64,000 nucleotides of DNA from Candidatus Harrisonbacteria bacterium (GTDB lineage: Bacteria > Patescibacteriota > Minisyncoccia > UBA6257 > 02-FULL-45-10c). This document shows, piece after piece, positions 3,523 through 60,407 of the stretch. A model generated the notes under the pieces. It saw only the letters and a program-made list of their open reading frames with translations. It was not told the origin of the DNA and did no database searches. Within the stretch, counting starts at the first letter, position 1, and the number at the start of each line of letters is the position of its first letter. Location: assembly GCA_016214655.1 (NCBI GenBank), contig JACROC010000002.1, positions 67,801 to 131,800 on the forward strand. Reading direction: 5' to 3'. Both the position numbers and the translations under genes were made by a program.

Positions 3523-4305
3523 ATGACCGTAGCATTGGTGGCTGCTGTAGTTGCGGCGGTGATTATAGGTGTGGCTATGGAAAGCTTTTCTGCGGTTGTT
3601 GTTGCTGCACTCATCGGCGGCGGAATAGTTTTTGGGGGTAATGCGCTAATTACTTACGGCGCCCTCGCCGGACTGATAACTGGTTTAACTTTGGCTGGAG
3701 CGCTTGCGGTCGGTACGGCTGGATTCTGGCTGCTCGTAGCAGTATCTACCGTTGCACTCGCTTGTCTAGTTGAGAACGAAGAAGGAGCTTGGGCTACTGG
3801 GACGCTTCTTCTAACGCTTCTACTTCTCCAGCTGTTCGGTGACATCAAAGTTTTCACTTCTGCATACAACCATCCGCTTGTCGCCCTTATGTGCGTTGCC
3901 GGATATTTTATGGCTGGAATGGCTTGGGCAATTTGGAAATGGGTGCTTTATAACCGTGACCAAAAAATGCTATATGACGAACGGAGGACTGCATTCCTAA
4001 AGGATAATAATATTACCGACAACACAATACCCGCAGATCTAAAAACGAATTTTGATCAGTGCGTAAACGGAATTGACATTCGTCCGCCAGTTACCGAACA
4101 TAAGGAACGAGTTCTGCGATGGATGACTTATTGGCCGTGGAGCGCGCTTGCTTGGTTGCTCAGCGATCCAATCCGCCGGTTATTCCGGGAAATTTATCAT
4201 CAAATTCAAAATACTCTGCAGAAAATTTCAGACCGGATTTGGCAGGGAGTTGAAAATGATCTGCCGCCACCTGCGACTAGCAGGCGAAGGCGGAATCAGC
4301 ACTAA
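3523..4305 (+). CDS. Hypothetical polytopic membrane protein, GC-rich
   Basis: Several hydrophobic helices (VALVAAVVAAVIIGVAM...). Strong RBS aggaaaggaggtaatggaATG. GC is noticeably above surrounding DNA. Confidence 0.6.
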   Translation: MTVALVAAVVAAVIIGVAMESFSAVVVAALIGGGIVFGGNALITYGALAGLITGLTLAGALAVGTAGFWLLVAVSTVALACLVENEEGAWATGTLLLTLLLLQLFGDIKVFTSAYNHPLVALMCVAGYFMAGMAWAIWKWVLYNRDQKMLYDERRTAFLKDNNITDNTIPADLKTNFDQCVNGIDIRPPVTEHKERVLRWMTYWPWSALAWLLSDPIRRLFREIYHQIQNTLQKISDRIWQGVENDLPPPATSRRRRNQH

Positions 4306-6846: not shown

Positions 6847-8064
6847 TTAATATTTGCATTCCTCTGATTCGTTTCTTGTATATCCGAAAATCTTCTTAAA
6901 TCTTTCAATATCATTCGAATCTCCCATCGCCTTTGCCAGATTATCACTCAACTTCACCGTGCCGTGGCCGTTAGCTTCAGTAACCTTAACCACCAATGAT
7001 AACGCTTTAAATCCTAAGTCGTTGGTAAGGTTTGTCCCCCATCCGAATACAACATTAGTTCTTCCGCTAAATCGCTCATGGAGTTTAACGATCATATCCA
7101 CATCCAGCCCATCACTGAAAACAATAGTCTTTGTTTTAGGATCAATACCATATTTCTGATAAAACGCAATCGCTTTTTCACCGAACTCAAATGGATCTCC
7201 CGAATCCTGCCGAAAACCTCGCCACTTTCTCACCTGCTCTAAAGTTAAATCCTTAAAAAAGAAATCAGTTCCATAAGTGTCAGTAAGCGCAATTGATAGC
7301 GGCTCGCCATACTCCTTCCACCAAAGCTGTAACACCTTATTATGAGAGTACCGGATAGAATCATCACTGCCATGATAAACTCCAGATAACACCATATCCA
7401 TTTCGTGCGCAAAAGTGCCGATCGGACGGATTCCAAATCGTTTTGCAAAAGCAACATTTGAAGTTCCCAGAAGCTGATCCGGAACCGATCGCACTAAGCG
7501 GCCGATAACGTTATCCTGCCAGTAACGGCTGAATCGTCGGCGCGTGCCAAAATCTGAAAACTTTATTCCGGGATACAGGTTCAAAATCTCGATCTTTCGA
7601 GATAAACGGCTCTGTCCTTCACTCCAAACTCCAACTTCCGACCGCCCTTCCTTTCTAAGTAAAGAACGGTAATAAAGTTCGTTCACTACGGATAAAATCA
7701 GAGTTTCCCACCAAATCGCTTCCGGCCAAAGTCCAAAAACCTCAATCTTGTAAGTAGCGCCGTCTCTAGCCACAACAACTTCCGGAAGCTTCAAATTTTT
7801 TAAGAATCCTAAAAAGTCTTCGGAAAAAATCTTGAGTCCGCGCAGATATGCAATTTCCTCATCGGTAAACCGCAGGCTCCTAACATGATCCAATTCCATT
7901 CTCAAGTCTTCTTCATTGATATATTCAGCCAGCAGAACATTTTTTGTCCGATTTTTAAAACTGTACCTTACGGGTACAGTTTGATAATGCTTCCAGGCAA
8001 CCTGTGCCATCGTAAGCTTATAATAATCAAGATCTAACAGAGATCGGATGATTGGAGTATTCAT
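6847..8064 (-). CDS. pncB: Nicotinate phosphoribosyltransferase
   Basis: 'FSDFGTRRRFS', 'AHEM', 'FRQDSGDPFEFGEKAIAFYQKYGIDPKTKTIVFSDGLD' and 'VKLSDN' match NAPRTase. The start was set at MNTPIIRSLLDLDYYKLTM. Confidence 0.85.
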   Translation of the reverse strand: MNTPIIRSLLDLDYYKLTMAQVAWKHYQTVPVRYSFKNRTKNVLLAEYINEEDLRMELDHVRSLRFTDEEIAYLRGLKIFSEDFLGFLKNLKLPEVVVARDGATYKIEVFGLWPEAIWWETLILSVVNELYYRSLLRKEGRSEVGVWSEGQSRLSRKIEILNLYPGIKFSDFGTRRRFSRYWQDNVIGRLVRSVPDQLLGTSNVAFAKRFGIRPIGTFAHEMDMVLSGVYHGSDDSIRYSHNKVLQLWWKEYGEPLSIALTDTYGTDFFFKDLTLEQVRKWRGFRQDSGDPFEFGEKAIAFYQKYGIDPKTKTIVFSDGLDVDMIVKLHERFSGRTNVVFGWGTNLTNDLGFKALSLVVKVTEANGHGTVKLSDNLAKAMGDSNDIERFKKIFGYTRNESEECKY

Positions 8065-46643: not shown

Positions 46644-46672
46644 AAATTTTCTAATCGCTAGTCGCTAACCGC

Positions 46673-52325: not shown

Positions 52326-54029
52326 TTATTCTCTTATAACCCTAAGTACTTCTTCCACCGTAGTCATTCCCTGCATGGCTTTTCTCAAGCCATCTTCAAA
52401 CATAGTAATCATCCCTCTTTTACGTGCCAATTTTCTAAGTCCATCAAGAGAAAAATCCGGATTAATAATATAAGCCCGGATCTCATCGTCAACGTTCAAT
52501 ACTTCGTAGATTCCAATTCTGCCTTTCAAGCCGCTGTGGCCGCAACTCTTGCATCCCTTACCGCGAAAAAGAGTTTTTGGCAGTTTCAAGCTTTCGATGC
52601 CTAAATCCTCGATCTGTTTTTTAATTAATTGTAGCAAATAATCGGTCGGCTTATAAGATTCTATGCAATCGTTACAAATTTTACCCACCAAACGCTGGGC
52701 AAAAGCCATATTTAGAACCGCCGAAACTAAAAAAGGCGGAATTTTCAAATCGGTTAATCTCGGAATAGCCGTCGGCGCATCATTGGTGTGCAAAGTAGAT
52801 AAAAGCAAATGACCCGTCAAAGCGGCATTGACGGAAATTTCTGCCGTTTCCGGATCCCTGATTTCACCGACTAGAATAATATTCGGATCTTGCCTCAAAA
52901 GCGCCCGCAATCCGCTGGAAAATGTAATTCCGGCCTGGGGATTAATCTGAGTCTGATTAACATATTTAATATTGTATTCCACCGGATCTTCAATTGTCAC
53001 GATATTCACCTCGGGATGATTTAAACCATTAAGAATGGAGTAAAGTGTAGTGGTTTTTCCGGATCCGGTTGGTCCGCAAATTAAAACCATTCCGTAAGTT
53101 TTGTGTATATTCTCTTCTACGATTTTAATCGTATCCGGAAGCATGCCCAATTCCACGAAAGATAACGGGCGCTGAGCAGCGGTTAACAAGCGCATCTCCA
53201 CCTTCTCGCCGTAAAAAGTGGGGATAACTGAAACACGGAGGTCAATAAAATTCTGTTCTAATTTCTGGCGGAAACGGCCGTCTTGCGGGCGAGTATGCTC
53301 ATCCAATTTTAAACTTGCTAGAAGTTTAATGCGGGCGGTAATCGCTGAATGGACTTCTTTGGGTAATCTCATCATTTCCCTAAGTATTCCATCAATACGG
53401 TAACGGACTAAAAGAATATCTTCTAAAACTTCTAAATGAATATCCGAAGCCCTTAAAGAAGCCGCATAAGCAAGGAGATTATCTACGATGGCAACAATCG
53501 GCAGTTCCTCCGCCGCCTTCTCCGCGCCTGCAGCGCTGGCACGAATAGAAGCAGCCACATTTTCTTCAATTGCCCAACGAAAATCCTCTACCCCGCCGCG
53601 AGAATATACTGAGAAGGCTTCATTGAAATCCTCAGGTGAAGCAATGTAGGGTCTAATATCGGCTTTTAAATATCGCTTTAAAAATTCAATTGAAGCTAAG
53701 TCGCTGGGATCTTCCATAGCCACCGCCAAAGAACCATCTTCTTCTTTCCTAAAAACAACCGCGCGCTTCTCGCGAGAAATCTCCTTTGGCAAAAGATGAA
53801 GTATCTTCTCGTCAATTACCTGGGAAGATAAACTGGCTTTCTTAACCCCAAAATAAGCCGCGACCAAATCATAAAAATATTTCTTAGTAATAAAGCCGCG
53901 GGATACTAAAATATCAGCCACCTCAAAACCCATCCGGCCAGCCTCTACGACGATTTTATCAAACTCCTCCGCATCAATCAGTTTTTCCGTTATTAACAGC
54001 TCTTTTAATTTTTCATTAGGGATTCTCAA
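52326..54029 (-). CDS. pilB: Type IV pilus assembly ATPase (GspE/PilB family)
   Basis: Walker A 'GPTGSGKTTTL', His box, and a tetracysteine 'CNDC...CKSC'. Confidence 0.85.
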   Translation of the reverse strand: MRIPNEKLKELLITEKLIDAEEFDKIVVEAGRMGFEVADILVSRGFITKKYFYDLVAAYFGVKKASLSSQVIDEKILHLLPKEISREKRAVVFRKEEDGSLAVAMEDPSDLASIEFLKRYLKADIRPYIASPEDFNEAFSVYSRGGVEDFRWAIEENVAASIRASAAGAEKAAEELPIVAIVDNLLAYAASLRASDIHLEVLEDILLVRYRIDGILREMMRLPKEVHSAITARIKLLASLKLDEHTRPQDGRFRQKLEQNFIDLRVSVIPTFYGEKVEMRLLTAAQRPLSFVELGMLPDTIKIVEENIHKTYGMVLICGPTGSGKTTTLYSILNGLNHPEVNIVTIEDPVEYNIKYVNQTQINPQAGITFSSGLRALLRQDPNIILVGEIRDPETAEISVNAALTGHLLLSTLHTNDAPTAIPRLTDLKIPPFLVSAVLNMAFAQRLVGKICNDCIESYKPTDYLLQLIKKQIEDLGIESLKLPKTLFRGKGCKSCGHSGLKGRIGIYEVLNVDDEIRAYIINPDFSLDGLRKLARKRGMITMFEDGLRKAMQGMTTVEEVLRVIRE

Positions 54030-54103
54030 TTCATTTGAGGGTTTAGGGTTCAGGGGTTAGGGGTTAGAAAAATTTCTATACCCTATACCCTATGCCCTAT
54101 ACC
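54030..54103. repeat. Telomere-like G-tract repeats (GGGTTTA GGGTTCA GGGGTTA GGGGTTAG) followed by complementary C-tract repeats (ATACCC TATACCC TATGCCC TATACCC)
   Basis: Read directly. Four G-tracts on each strand satisfy a G3+N1-7 quadruplex pattern. The two halves form an imperfect inverted repeat. Confidence 0.8.
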
Positions 54104-54694
54104 CTACAATTTTAGTAATTGCCACCATGGCAACACGCTTAGCCACTTACTTATTATTATAGTCAAAAACGCGGTCGGCAGCCAAAGATAATAAAAAGAA
54201 AGACGCTCGCTTTTAACAAATGATAAATGACTACTGACAAATGACAAAATAAGAGCCGAAATCAAAAGCACAAATAAATAAACAAGCCAGGCAGGATGGC
54301 CAACTGAAAAAATCGCGGTCGCCAGCAAATATGGTTCTATCAGTTCAAAAAACCTTTCTCCAAATCTTTTATTTAAATATCTGGTTGCCGCTAAAAAAAT
54401 AATTCCTACAATCAATGACAATAAATATTGGTTAAAAAATCTGGTTCTGATAAAAAACACAAAATAATCTAAATTCCGGTATGGAGGAAGAAAGAATTTT
54501 CCGATTTCATTCCCTTGCCACAACTTATATTGAGCCCAAGAATAATAGCCCGCTAATCCGAAAATTATGATTGCAGCCGAAATAAAGATTGTTAAACCGA
54601 AAAACCCGCTCCTATAAAAATCAGAGCGGGTTTTTCTGGATATCAGCTGAACAGAAAAAATTATAACAAGAAACCCAAGAATAATTATGTCCAT
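54104..54694 (-). CDS. Hypothetical polytopic membrane protein
   Basis: 5-6 TM helices. No prepilin-peptidase motifs were seen. Confidence 0.5.
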   Translation of the reverse strand: MDIIILGFLVIIFSVQLISRKTRSDFYRSGFFGLTIFISAAIIIFGLAGYYSWAQYKLWQGNEIGKFFLPPYRNLDYFVFFIRTRFFNQYLLSLIVGIIFLAATRYLNKRFGERFFELIEPYLLATAIFSVGHPAWLVYLFVLLISALILSFVSSHLSFVKSERLSFYYLWLPTAFLTIIISKWLSVLPWWQLLKL

Positions 54695-56589: not shown

Positions 56590-58555
<1,966 letters not shown>

Positions 58556-58957
58556 TAAATTTGATTGCAGGAAACCCTCGAACGAGTTTCTCGCAACCAA
58601 ATTCTGTATTGGGACAACTAGAAAATTTTCTTTTTTAATCTTGGACTCGCTCATCCCGCAACACGGGACAAACGATTTTGCTCAATTAACTAATTGATAA
58701 TTTTACCTTTTTGTTTTATCAAAGCGGCGAGTACTATTTTCCGTGAAAATAATACACCCGCCTTGTTCCTCGGTTTCCCAAGAAGCAAGGCGGATGTACT
58801 TTAAAAATCCAAATATTTATTTTTTAATTAAGCACCAATAATCATATTAGTAATATACATTATATTCGCAAACACAAATAGCGTCAATACCCCTCCAAAA
58901 CTTTCTTCCCCGCGCAGTTTAAATGCGCGGAGACTGAAAATTCTCGAGAATTTTCGT

Positions 58958-59580: not shown

Positions 59581-59597
59581 CTACCTTGAGCGATTAG

Positions 59598-59628
59598 CGA
59601 CTAGTGGTTAGCCACTAGTTTTTATTTT
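59598..59628 (+). terminator. rpmE terminator
   Basis: actagtgg-ttag-ccactagt followed by tttttatttt. Confidence 0.6.
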
Positions 59629-59681
59629 GAATATTTCAAAGTTTACTAGTCGCTAGTGGCTAGTCGCTAACTACTAAAAAT

Positions 59682-60407
59682 ATGGTTCAAAAACTAATTC
59701 TCGAAATAAGAGGCGGAGCCGGCGGCGATGAAGCCTCTATCTTTGCCGGTGACCTGGCCAGAATGTATCAGCGTTATGCCGCAACTAAAAGCTGGAAATT
59801 TGGCATTCTCGATACCAGCGCCGGAACAATTGGCGGCTATAAAACTTTTATCAGCCGAGTGGAGGGTGAGGAATGCTTTAACGCGTTAAAACAAGAGTCC
59901 GGAGTGCATCGAGTACAGAGAATTCCTAAAACCGAAAAATCCGGCCGCGTGCATACTTCTACCGCTACCGTGGCAATTCTGCCGGTAGTAGAACCGAAAG
60001 AAGTAAATATTAATCAAGGAGACCTTGAGGTTACTTTCTCACGCGCCGGCGGCCCAGGAGGACAGAATGTGAATAAAATCGAATCCGCAGTCCGGATCTT
60101 GCATAAACCGACTGGCATTGTAGTTTCCTGCCGGGAAGAACGGAATCAGCATGCCAACCGCGAACGCGCTATGGAGGTGCTCCGCGCAAAGCTATATGAA
60201 ATCCAGCAAACTAAAGAAGTCGGAGATATTACTGCCGCCCGCCGCGAACAAGTCGGCAGTGCGGATAGGTCAGAAAAAATCCGCACCTACAATTTCCCGG
60301 ACGACCGAATAACCGACCACCGATTCAATATTAAAGTGCACAATATAGAAAATGTTTTAGAAGGCGACCTAGATGCGCTTTTAAAGAAAATCAACAAAGC
60401 CCAATAA
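59682..60407 (+). CDS. prfA: Class I peptide chain release factor (RF1-like, PKT motif) lacking N-terminal domain 1
   Basis: 'ILEIRGGAGGDEA', 'RVQRIPKTEKSGRVHTS' (a PxT-type codon-recognition loop) and 'GGQNVNK' (the GGQ motif). It is only 241 aa. The upstream 100 nt hold the rpmE terminator and have stop codons in all frames. Confidence 0.7.
   Translation: MVQKLILEIRGGAGGDEASIFAGDLARMYQRYAATKSWKFGILDTSAGTIGGYKTFISRVEGEECFNALKQESGVHRVQRIPKTEKSGRVHTSTATVAILPVVEPKEVNINQGDLEVTFSRAGGPGGQNVNKIESAVRILHKPTGIVVSCREERNQHANRERAMEVLRAKLYEIQQTKEVGDITAARREQVGSADRSEKIRTYNFPDDRITDHRFNIKVHNIENVLEGDLDALLKKINKAQ

Follow-up and report, generated by a model that had tools for sequence, protein, structure and literature searches.

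Tandem arrays of heptanucleotide repeats have been described in several bacterial groups. Those of Xanthomonas and Nostoc have units of the type GGGAATC or GGGGA(C/T)T and no known function (Rehm et al. 2015, PMC4692102); 70–75 of the ~185 repeats per genome form convergent inverted pairs that are capable of folding into stem-loops (PMC4692102). TAACTGA direct repeats occur in Beggiatoaceae, cyanobacteria and Bacteroidetes, and a role in translation has been proposed for them (MacGregor 2015, PMC4679880). Heptamers also accompany intervening sequences (IVSs) of rRNA genes: the Coxiella IVS carries an S23p open reading frame (ORF) with tandem heptamers upstream, at the first of which RNase III cleaves (Warrier et al. 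2016, PMC4990558). The S23p IVSs of Coxiella and Leptospira are regarded as selfish, with a sporadic distribution and a variable heptamer copy number (PMC4990558). Here we analysed a 64,000-nucleotide stretch of DNA (the window) from Candidatus Harrisonbacteria, a member of the Candidate Phyla Radiation (CPR), in which the gap between a membrane-protein gene and the pilus gene pilB is filled by two inverted heptamer arrays. The same architecture brackets S23p/intervening-sequence protein (IVP) genes in CPR bacteria, cyanobacteria, Gemmatimonadota and some viral contigs, and it also occurs gene-less. The reading that we favour, and consider probable, is that the element is an IVS-like heptamer hairpin without an ORF, folding within the mRNA of the operon and acting there as a structured spacer between cistrons.

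The gap (54030–54103, 74 nt) is the entire interval between a 196-amino-acid (aa) multi-pass membrane-protein ORF (54104–54694) and pilB (52326–54029). It contains two inverted arrays, each of four 7-nt units, with four G-tracts per strand. The G-tract repeat and C-rich complement quoted in the original prediction were both found on the plus strand, as GAGGGTTTAGGGTTCAGGGGTTAGGGGTTAG at 54038–54068 and ATACCCTATACCCTATGCCCTATACCC at 54079–54105, on either side of a 10-nt spacer (54069–54078). The placing of the repeat exactly between the two genes also held, although the repeats span 54037–54106 and run past 54103 into the stop codon of the upstream ORF. Apart from this end coordinate, the anatomy had been described accurately except for the strand: both genes lie on the minus strand.

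Read along the mRNA (minus) strand, the 5′ arm (54076–54106) is G-rich and consists of the units TAGGGTA, TAGGGCA, TAGGGTA and TAGGGTA followed by a final TAG, with four G3 tracts. Five TAGs occur, one every 7 nt, the first of which (54106–54104) is both the first repeat unit and the stop codon of the upstream gene; because TAG recurs with this spacing, the arm carries stops in all three frames. A 9-nt loop, AAATTTTTC (54067–54075), which is partly paired in the folding model to leave a 4-nt apical loop, leads to the C-rich 3′ arm (54037–54066), made of TAACCCC, TAACCCC, TGAACCC, TAAACCC and a terminal TC. This arm is phased at 7 nt as CTA, CTA, CTG, CTA and likewise as TAA, TAA, TGA, TAA; its complement is the G-quadruplex (G4) motif of the plus strand. 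From the base of the stem to the TTG start of pilB there is a 7-nt spacer (54030–54036, minus strand), which reads AAATGAA and contains no Shine–Dalgarno (SD)-like sequence. A two-codon, out-of-frame mini-ORF, ATG-AAT-TGA (54026–54034, minus strand), lies between the hairpin and pilB, with its stop overlapping the start codon (aTTGa), and could have a termination–reinitiation role at pilB.

Tandem Repeats Finder recorded both halves as period-7 arrays, with 4.3 and 4.4 copies. The pattern GGGN4GGGN4GGG was matched four times in the window, all at this site, where 0.5 matches were expected and no shuffle reached four; the host genome is ~43% GC and has this one G-rich heptamer copy in the 64 kb. 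On their G-rich strands the two arms have different units, GGGTATA/GGGCATA and GGGTTTA/GGGTTCA/GGGGTTA, with only the TAGGG core in common and differing spacers. Rfam gave nothing meaningful at the site when the window was searched at gathering thresholds, and at permissive thresholds the site returned only sub-threshold chance matches to miRNA hairpins (E 1.7–8.7). A telomere or the end of a linear replicon was also considered and ruled out, as the repeat lies inside an operon, on a contig of 137 kb; the description ‘telomere-like’ is a matter of resemblance only.

The Xanthomonas and Nostoc repeats (PMC4692102) are the closest kind in the literature. In common with them, the element has tandem 7-nt units with a G3+ tract, at least four intact units, co-oriented flanking ORFs, a convergent pair, and a G-strand that, on the coding strand, overlaps the stop codon or lies up to 50 nt from it and, on the non-coding strand, lies up to 50 nt 5′ of the next ORF. 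Unlike them, its units are not of the GGGNATC type and are phased by TAG, its host is a CPR bacterium, and it is a single G-rich copy in 64 kb rather than one of ~185 per genome. Judged from sequence, it would be a CPR-genome member of this kind of repeat on all positional and structural criteria, though not on the unit consensus. S23p and IVP receive 0 mentions in PMC4692102; in our data, S23p/IVP genes are enclosed by this very architecture. The TAACTGA arrays (PMC4679880) are similar in having stops in three frames and in that arrays of 2–6 copies often overlap the upstream stop and end a few nt before an SD-less start. They differ in being direct repeats (one inverted case in 170 sets) of a different unit, with no hairpin and no link to IVP; PMC4679880 contains no mention of S23p.

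We compared the junction in relatives that retain the gene order, in which syntenic orthologues of the membrane protein (188–197 aa) were found (L001, L005, L007, L089, L090 and L092). The membrane gene and pilB are separated by 4 nt in L001–L004 and by 3 nt in L005 and L006. In L007 and L008 the junction is occupied by a gene for a 138-aa IVP, flanked by TAG- and CTA-phased arms; the IVP family (PF05635/TIGR02436, ‘23S rRNA intervening-sequence protein’, S23p) has an Avd-like four-helix bundle. A 93-nt hairpin with (TGACACC)x5 as its right arm fills the junction of L092, ~90 nt with other hairpins that of L089, and 83 AT-rich nt that of L090. Short-gap and filled lineages interleave on the pilB neighbour-joining tree. 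The 74-nt gap is a lineage-specific insertion at a repeatedly colonised junction, and because relatives manage with 3–4 nt, we do not count it among the conserved regulatory sites of that operon. A metagenome scan for unit-number polymorphism, which sought strain variants of the junction, gave 0 matches. In L090, the gap between pilB and pilC (3731–3867) also holds an insert, of ~135 nt, whose ends form a perfect inverted repeat of 16 bp (TCCCTCACCCTTGAAG ... CTTCAAGGGTGAGGGA) that abuts a TAA stop and an ATG start; heptamer units are absent, but the docking geometry is the same.

The L007 locus carries both forms of the element. Upstream of its IVP gene, the left arm is TAG-phased and reads TAGGGAT TAGCTTGT TAGG... 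TAGCTTAT TAGC; downstream, the right arm is CTA-phased and inverted in orientation, CCCTAAAAAGCTAATAAGCTA...CTAAAAAGCTAAT. Within the same 8-kb locus, ORF-less hairpins of the same build lie in three further operon gaps. The stretch at 7002–7160 of L007 keeps both arms and the first 22 IVP codons, and for this reason we regard it as an ORF-deleted derivative.

The association of arms with IVP genes was then measured over 80 loci from many CPR phyla that encode relatives of the L007 IVP, 78 of them with complete flanks. An array was scored where at least three TAG-phased units with 6–9-nt spacing lay within 200 nt upstream, or CTA-phased units within 160 nt downstream. TAG-phased units were present upstream of 71/78 IVP genes (control windows, 2/152), CTA-phased units downstream of 67/78 (4/152), and both arms at 64/78; the swapped polarities were seen 4 and 4 times. 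Intervals between units were 7 nt in 134 cases and 8 nt in 88, the commonest units were TAGCTTG and TAGCTTTT, and arrays usually had 4–5 units. The cassettes dock between genes in a characteristic way: among 65 two-arm cassettes, 42 had the upstream stop codon as one of the TAGs of the array, which in 24 was the first, and in 44 the last CTA was followed within 10 nt by the start of a co-oriented ORF ≥60 codons long. The window element has these same arms, with a TAG arm running from the stop codon and a CTA arm ending ≤10 nt before the next start. Cognate arms paired at −0.99 kcal/mol per nt, compared with −0.62 for non-cognate arms, and the cognate arm was the best partner in 13/65 cases and in the top 10% in 32/65. 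Since cognate arms pair better, a long-range stem would enclose the ORF as it does in rRNA IVSs. ORF-less hairpins were found in L007, L033, L055, L057, L068, L069 and L072, and at a second site in the window, 59581–59681.

This second hairpin (plus strand) lies between rpmE (L31) and a release-factor-like gene and is predicted to be stable, with a minimum free energy (MFE) of −41.7 kcal/mol (z = −6.4). Its arms, GATTAGC GACTAGT GGTTAGC CACTAG and CTAGTCG CTAGTGG CTAGTCG CTAAC, are separated by a loop of 27 nt; the first TAG serves as the stop codon of rpmE, and an ATG lies 5 nt past the last CTA. The units (TAGCGAC/TAGTGGT/TAGCCAC) have no G-tracts. A third locus (46644–46672, minus strand) has only a half array, TTAGCGA CTAGCGA TTAG, without an inverted partner, in the 29-nt gap from the signal peptidase I gene to hisS. 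The pattern TAGN4TAGN4TAG was matched 10 times in the window, at these three array loci, where 0.3 matches were expected, and each of the three arrays in 64 kb has different units. The release-factor-like ORF directly after the second hairpin (59682–60407, plus strand) encodes 241 aa and lacks about the first 100 PCRF positions; profile positions 101–194 match residues 4–97. The polA|fpg junction, sought as an empty-site control for IVP cassettes, was absent from the window.

Hairpins with TAGGG-type arms are not confined to CPR. Searching metagenomes with the pattern TAGGGNN x3, 5–35 nt, CCCTNNN x3 gave TAGGG/CCCTA hairpins at at least 120 loci, on contigs of 40 to 72% GC. Among the matches listed, a few resembled eukaryotic TTTAGGG arrays and most were bacterial-looking intergenic hairpins (units TAGGGAT, TAGGGGC and TAGGGAG), with four units per arm being commonest. 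At 57/120 listed loci, one arm had free 2-nt spacers exactly complementary to those of the other, where permutation gave an expectation of 12 and a maximum of 25. A plus-strand search matched 81 of the listed loci, and 4 of those hairpins were inside a long open frame; the orientation of ORFs around the listed hairpins was mixed, with much noise where contigs were high in GC, and we did not use it. The original prediction had named a generic repeat as an outcome that would count against it, and this applies in part. The motif is not common in the 64-kb window, but its type is generic across bacteria, both at the metagenome loci and in Xanthomonas and Nostoc (PMC4692102).

IVP genes outside CPR have comparable flanks. 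The gene of Nostoc edaphicum lies between (TAGGGAG)n and (CTCCCTA)n, that of Anabaena sp. 90 between (GGTGACA)n and (TGTCACC)n, and that of Calothrix between TTAGCTG and AAAGCTA arms, whilst the Gemmatirosa arms are 8-mers. TAGGG/CCCTA hairpins were also present in 16 IMG/VR viral contigs (L219–L234), and in three more (L235–L237) an IVP gene stands between TAGGGTG and CACCCTA arms; viruses may thus be one way in which such elements spread horizontally. In two cyanobacterial plasmids, from Pseudanabaena (L214) and Anabaena sp. 90 (L217), an IVP gene with long heptamer arrays lies between cas6 and cas4 of a CRISPR-Cas locus; the flanking arrays of L214 are in direct, not inverted, orientation, with ~17 copies of AAAGCTA.

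We next considered which structure the element would adopt. The mRNA strand has a hairpin MFE of −35.9 kcal/mol (z = −4.7) and the plus strand one of −43.9 kcal/mol (z = −6.2), with 0/200 shuffles matching either value; the proposal that the halves are an imperfect inverted repeat able to form a long hairpin is therefore confirmed in the model, where the arms pair as 5-bp UAGGG/CCCUA blocks with 2x2 (one 1x1) internal loops in between. A canonical motif of four G3+ tracts on each strand had likewise been proposed, and the pattern is there: G4Hunter gave 1.96 for the plus-strand arm and 1.40 for the mRNA-strand arm, so that both qualify as candidates. When G4s were allowed in ViennaRNA, however, the whole element was still predicted to fold as the −35.9 kcal/mol hairpin, whereas an isolated G-arm formed a G4 at only −8.4 kcal/mol; in the folding model, the hairpin dominates. 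Around the CPR IVP genes, a G4 motif was present in 1/72 left arms and 0/68 right arms, and GGG in 19/259 units. Most CPR members, with units of the TAGCTT type, cannot form a G4, yet they keep the same period, polarity, position and preference for 4–5 units. Because arms without G4 motifs share all the other features, G4 capacity is a property of the TAGGG unit rather than of the class, and the motifs are probably a by-product of that unit. As an explanation of the element, the G4 put forward originally is not supported and is probably a side issue, although G4s may still form in the G-rich subfamily, for which their formation in vitro has been published (PMC4692102).

A functional parallel is offered by the S23p IVS. 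As there, the terminal inverted sequences of the window element would form a long stem, and the relative L007 has an S23p-type ORF with arms at the same junction. The window element differs in having no ORF and a 9-nt loop, and in being located in an mRNA operon junction instead of 23S helix 25 or 45; its excision would cut the operon transcript rather than fragment an rRNA. By analogy, it may work like an S23p IVS, but it is not a member of that group, having no ORF and not being in rRNA. Other dispersed elements are less similar. Repetitive extragenic palindromic sequences and their mosaics (REP/BIME), the Correia/nemis elements of Neisseria and enterobacterial repetitive intergenic consensus (ERIC) sequences are short imperfect palindromes between co-transcribed genes, and their folding in mRNA alters stability or processing. 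They occur in at least 100 copies per genome and have conserved unique sequences rather than heptamer arms; REP is moved by RAYT, and Correia elements have target-site duplications. Conserved sequence, copy number and duplications of these kinds were not seen for the window element within the 64 kb, in which RAYT was not searched for. A miniature inverted-repeat transposable element would share the inverted arms, but in the 64 kb the other hairpin has different units. Finally, the heptanucleotide STRR repeats of cyanobacteria are reportedly tandem and dispersed, both intergenically and in the helices of structured RNAs, in Nostoc and Calothrix, and repeats of this type are said to occur inside the RNase P RNA gene. 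Those two genera are the ones whose plasmid IVP genes show heptamer arms here, which we take as a lead only. The STRR units differ (CCCCAGT and others), and we know of no inverted-arm or IVP association described for them.

How might such an insert be accommodated in the operon? The element would be co-transcribed with its neighbours, and this is very probable because it runs from the upstream stop to 7 nt before the SD-less pilB TTG. The stem would loop out the 67 inserted nucleotides as a stem-loop of ~68 nt, and its base would bring the stop codon and the pilB start together; the insert may be tolerated because it is looped out in this way. A ribosome terminating at UAG would melt the bottom of the stem and free the strand just 5′ of the pilB start, and because of this the translational coupling of the former 3–4-nt junction would be kept. 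Initiation without an SD sequence is to be expected in this lineage, since the 3′ end of its 16S rRNA lacks the CCUCC anti-SD: the window (56595–56610, minus strand) reads GGATCAATTAAAC, without CCTCC, instead of GGATCACCTCCTT, and the 16S 3′ end of L007 (700–715) likewise lacks the anti-SD. By analogy with S23p-type rRNA IVSs, RNase III could plausibly cleave the stem as well. An RNase III gene was not found in the 64-kb window by tblastn with an RNase III query, a result that is uninformative for the whole genome.

Several observations weigh against the IVS-like reading. There is no IVP remnant in the 9-nt loop, and inspection of the flanks against L001, L005 and L007 identified no target-site duplication, only AATTG at unequal distances; because of these two absences, the element could have grown in place by slippage and inversion. 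No IVP gene was found in the 64-kb window, either by tblastn or with a hidden Markov model (HMM) trained on the IVPs that the 80 loci encode, and the IVP HMM found none in the stretches fetched around the listed metagenome TAGGG hairpins. The shared arm pattern may partly be common descent, as the 80 loci are the closest relatives of one query. The 2-nt spacers of the window arms are not complementary; as a result the stem is divided into successive 5-bp blocks and makes a less than ideal substrate for RNase III. Lastly, the G-rich subfamily and its four-unit mode fit equally well the argument for G4s made in PMC4692102.

Each of the other explanations accounts for part of this evidence. The arrays might be a neutral simple-sequence repeat, produced by heptamer slippage with inversion or template switching and tolerated as functionless filler. 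The two arms do appear to have been homogenised separately, as (TAGGGTA)n and (TAACCCC/TAAACCC)n, as would follow from slippage; the missing duplication, the half array at 46644–46672 and the variability of the junction among relatives all agree with this, and heptamers are the favoured long repeat period in bacteria (PMC4692102, PMC4679880). What pure slippage leaves unexplained is the strict polarity, with the TAG arm upstream and the CTA arm downstream, together with the anchoring to stops and starts; nor does it explain why arm spacers co-vary, why cognate arms pair better or why the arrays are tied recurrently to one gene family, and we consider it rather unlikely. The hairpin could alternatively be a terminator, attenuator or 3′-end stabiliser that ends or protects the transcript of the pilin and membrane genes, so that their expression exceeds that of pilB and pilC. 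A strong stem directly after a stop codon, at a site 3′ of a pilin-like gene, would fit a pilus operon whose genes are expressed at different levels. In E. coli, hairpins of the REP type make the mRNA upstream of them more stable. Against this, the stem is followed by CAAAUGAAUUGAG, with no U-tract as a Rho-independent terminator would have, and a terminator and promoter scan found neither kind of site in the element, and pilB starts 8 nt past the stem. Across the family, the right arm typically abuts the next start, which fits read-through better than termination, and relatives manage without the element; on balance we think this role improbable.

A G4 switch, in which G-tracts on the mRNA or either DNA strand block or modulate RNA polymerase or the ribosome and so tune pilB, draws on the canonical G3+N3–4 x4 motifs and G4Hunter scores of both strands. 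Related G-rich heptamers adopt G4s in vitro, with a preference for four units (PMC4692102), the number per arm that is also commonest among the metagenome hairpins listed. Yet the complementary C-arm is just 9 nt away and the model minimum is the hairpin by a wide difference in energy (see above), the second window hairpin has no G-tracts, and CPR arms incapable of G4 formation share the period, position and unit number. Since orthologues lack the element here, no conserved regulation rests on it, and no regulatory role was found for such repeats in PMC4692102; a switch of this kind is accordingly hard to favour, and we hold it to be quite unlikely. The arrays could instead be binding sites, the 4–5 units of an arm being bound by a multimeric protein such as a pentameric S23p/IVP, with the hairpin secondary. 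Arms accompany IVP genes across phyla, their unit number clusters at 4–5, the Xanthomonas S23p is reported to be a homopentamer (cited in PMC4990558), the IVP family is homologous to Avd, the accessory protein of diversity-generating retroelements (PMC10053308), and a TAGGG core is all that the G-rich strands of the window arms share. The lack of an IVP gene in the window and near the listed metagenome hairpins speaks against it, and units that vary as widely as TAGCTT, TAGGAA, TAGGGN and GGTGACA are hard to square with one sequence-specific binder; we give this explanation little credence.

The setting of the element in a pilus operon, as originally described, was borne out by N_methyl pilin-like genes, T2SSE (pilB), T2SSF (pilC) and a GspH-like gene. 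The product of pilB is a 567-aa ATPase with T2SSE and MshEN domains, and in alignments its TTG start falls at the ATG of the orthologues (M-x-I-P-N-E-K-L-K). Along its whole length it matches, with 100% identity, a protein annotated from a metagenome-assembled genome of Candidatus Harrisonbacteria; the next relatives are ≤77% identical. This match came from a homologue search, whereas looking up the exact sequences of PilB and of the membrane protein gave nothing. The 196-aa membrane protein had no match in Pfam or NCBIfam.

The 16S rRNA gene of the window (56600–58556, minus strand) is itself interrupted. After TGTACTCAC (~position 1395) there is an insert of ~470 nt, with an Rfam match to group-II-intron D1–D4 at 56874–56950 (37.9 bits), and the 3′ exon (CGCCCGTCAC...GTCGTAACAAGG...) resumes near 56720. 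In L007, an ORF for a LAGLIDADG homing endonuclease lies just 5′ of the 16S 3′ exon (1–700), a sign that a different insertion occupies a similar position in that rRNA.

More broadly, heptamer hairpins could represent, without the ORF, one class of IVS-like cassettes that spans phyla and is built around S23p/IVP genes. This would unify rRNA IVSs, the G4 heptamers of Xanthomonas and Nostoc, the STRR-like arrays of cyanobacteria and the CPR hairpins, but we put it forward tentatively and would not yet bet on it. In such a class, the arms would consist of phased 7–8-nt units, each of which in CPR carries TAG and so provides stops in all three frames; they may dock between a host stop and the next start, or inside rRNA helices, with the stem looping the insert out; by analogy, a pentameric IVP protein may recognise the 4–5 repeat units. 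A literature search, in a library that is incomplete, found no paper that links heptamer arrays to IVP genes, and the link may be new.

The element matters little for the biology of the pilus, not being a conserved regulator. Its G-rich units do counsel caution in inferring G4 function for members of this kind, since relatives incapable of forming a G4 share every other property. Heptamer arrays and rRNA IVSs have been described separately for decades, neither with an accepted function or origin. The S23p/IVP family, the fixed polarity of the arms and their docking from stop to start now tie these two kinds of repeat together in CPR bacteria, cyanobacteria, Gemmatimonadota and viral contigs.

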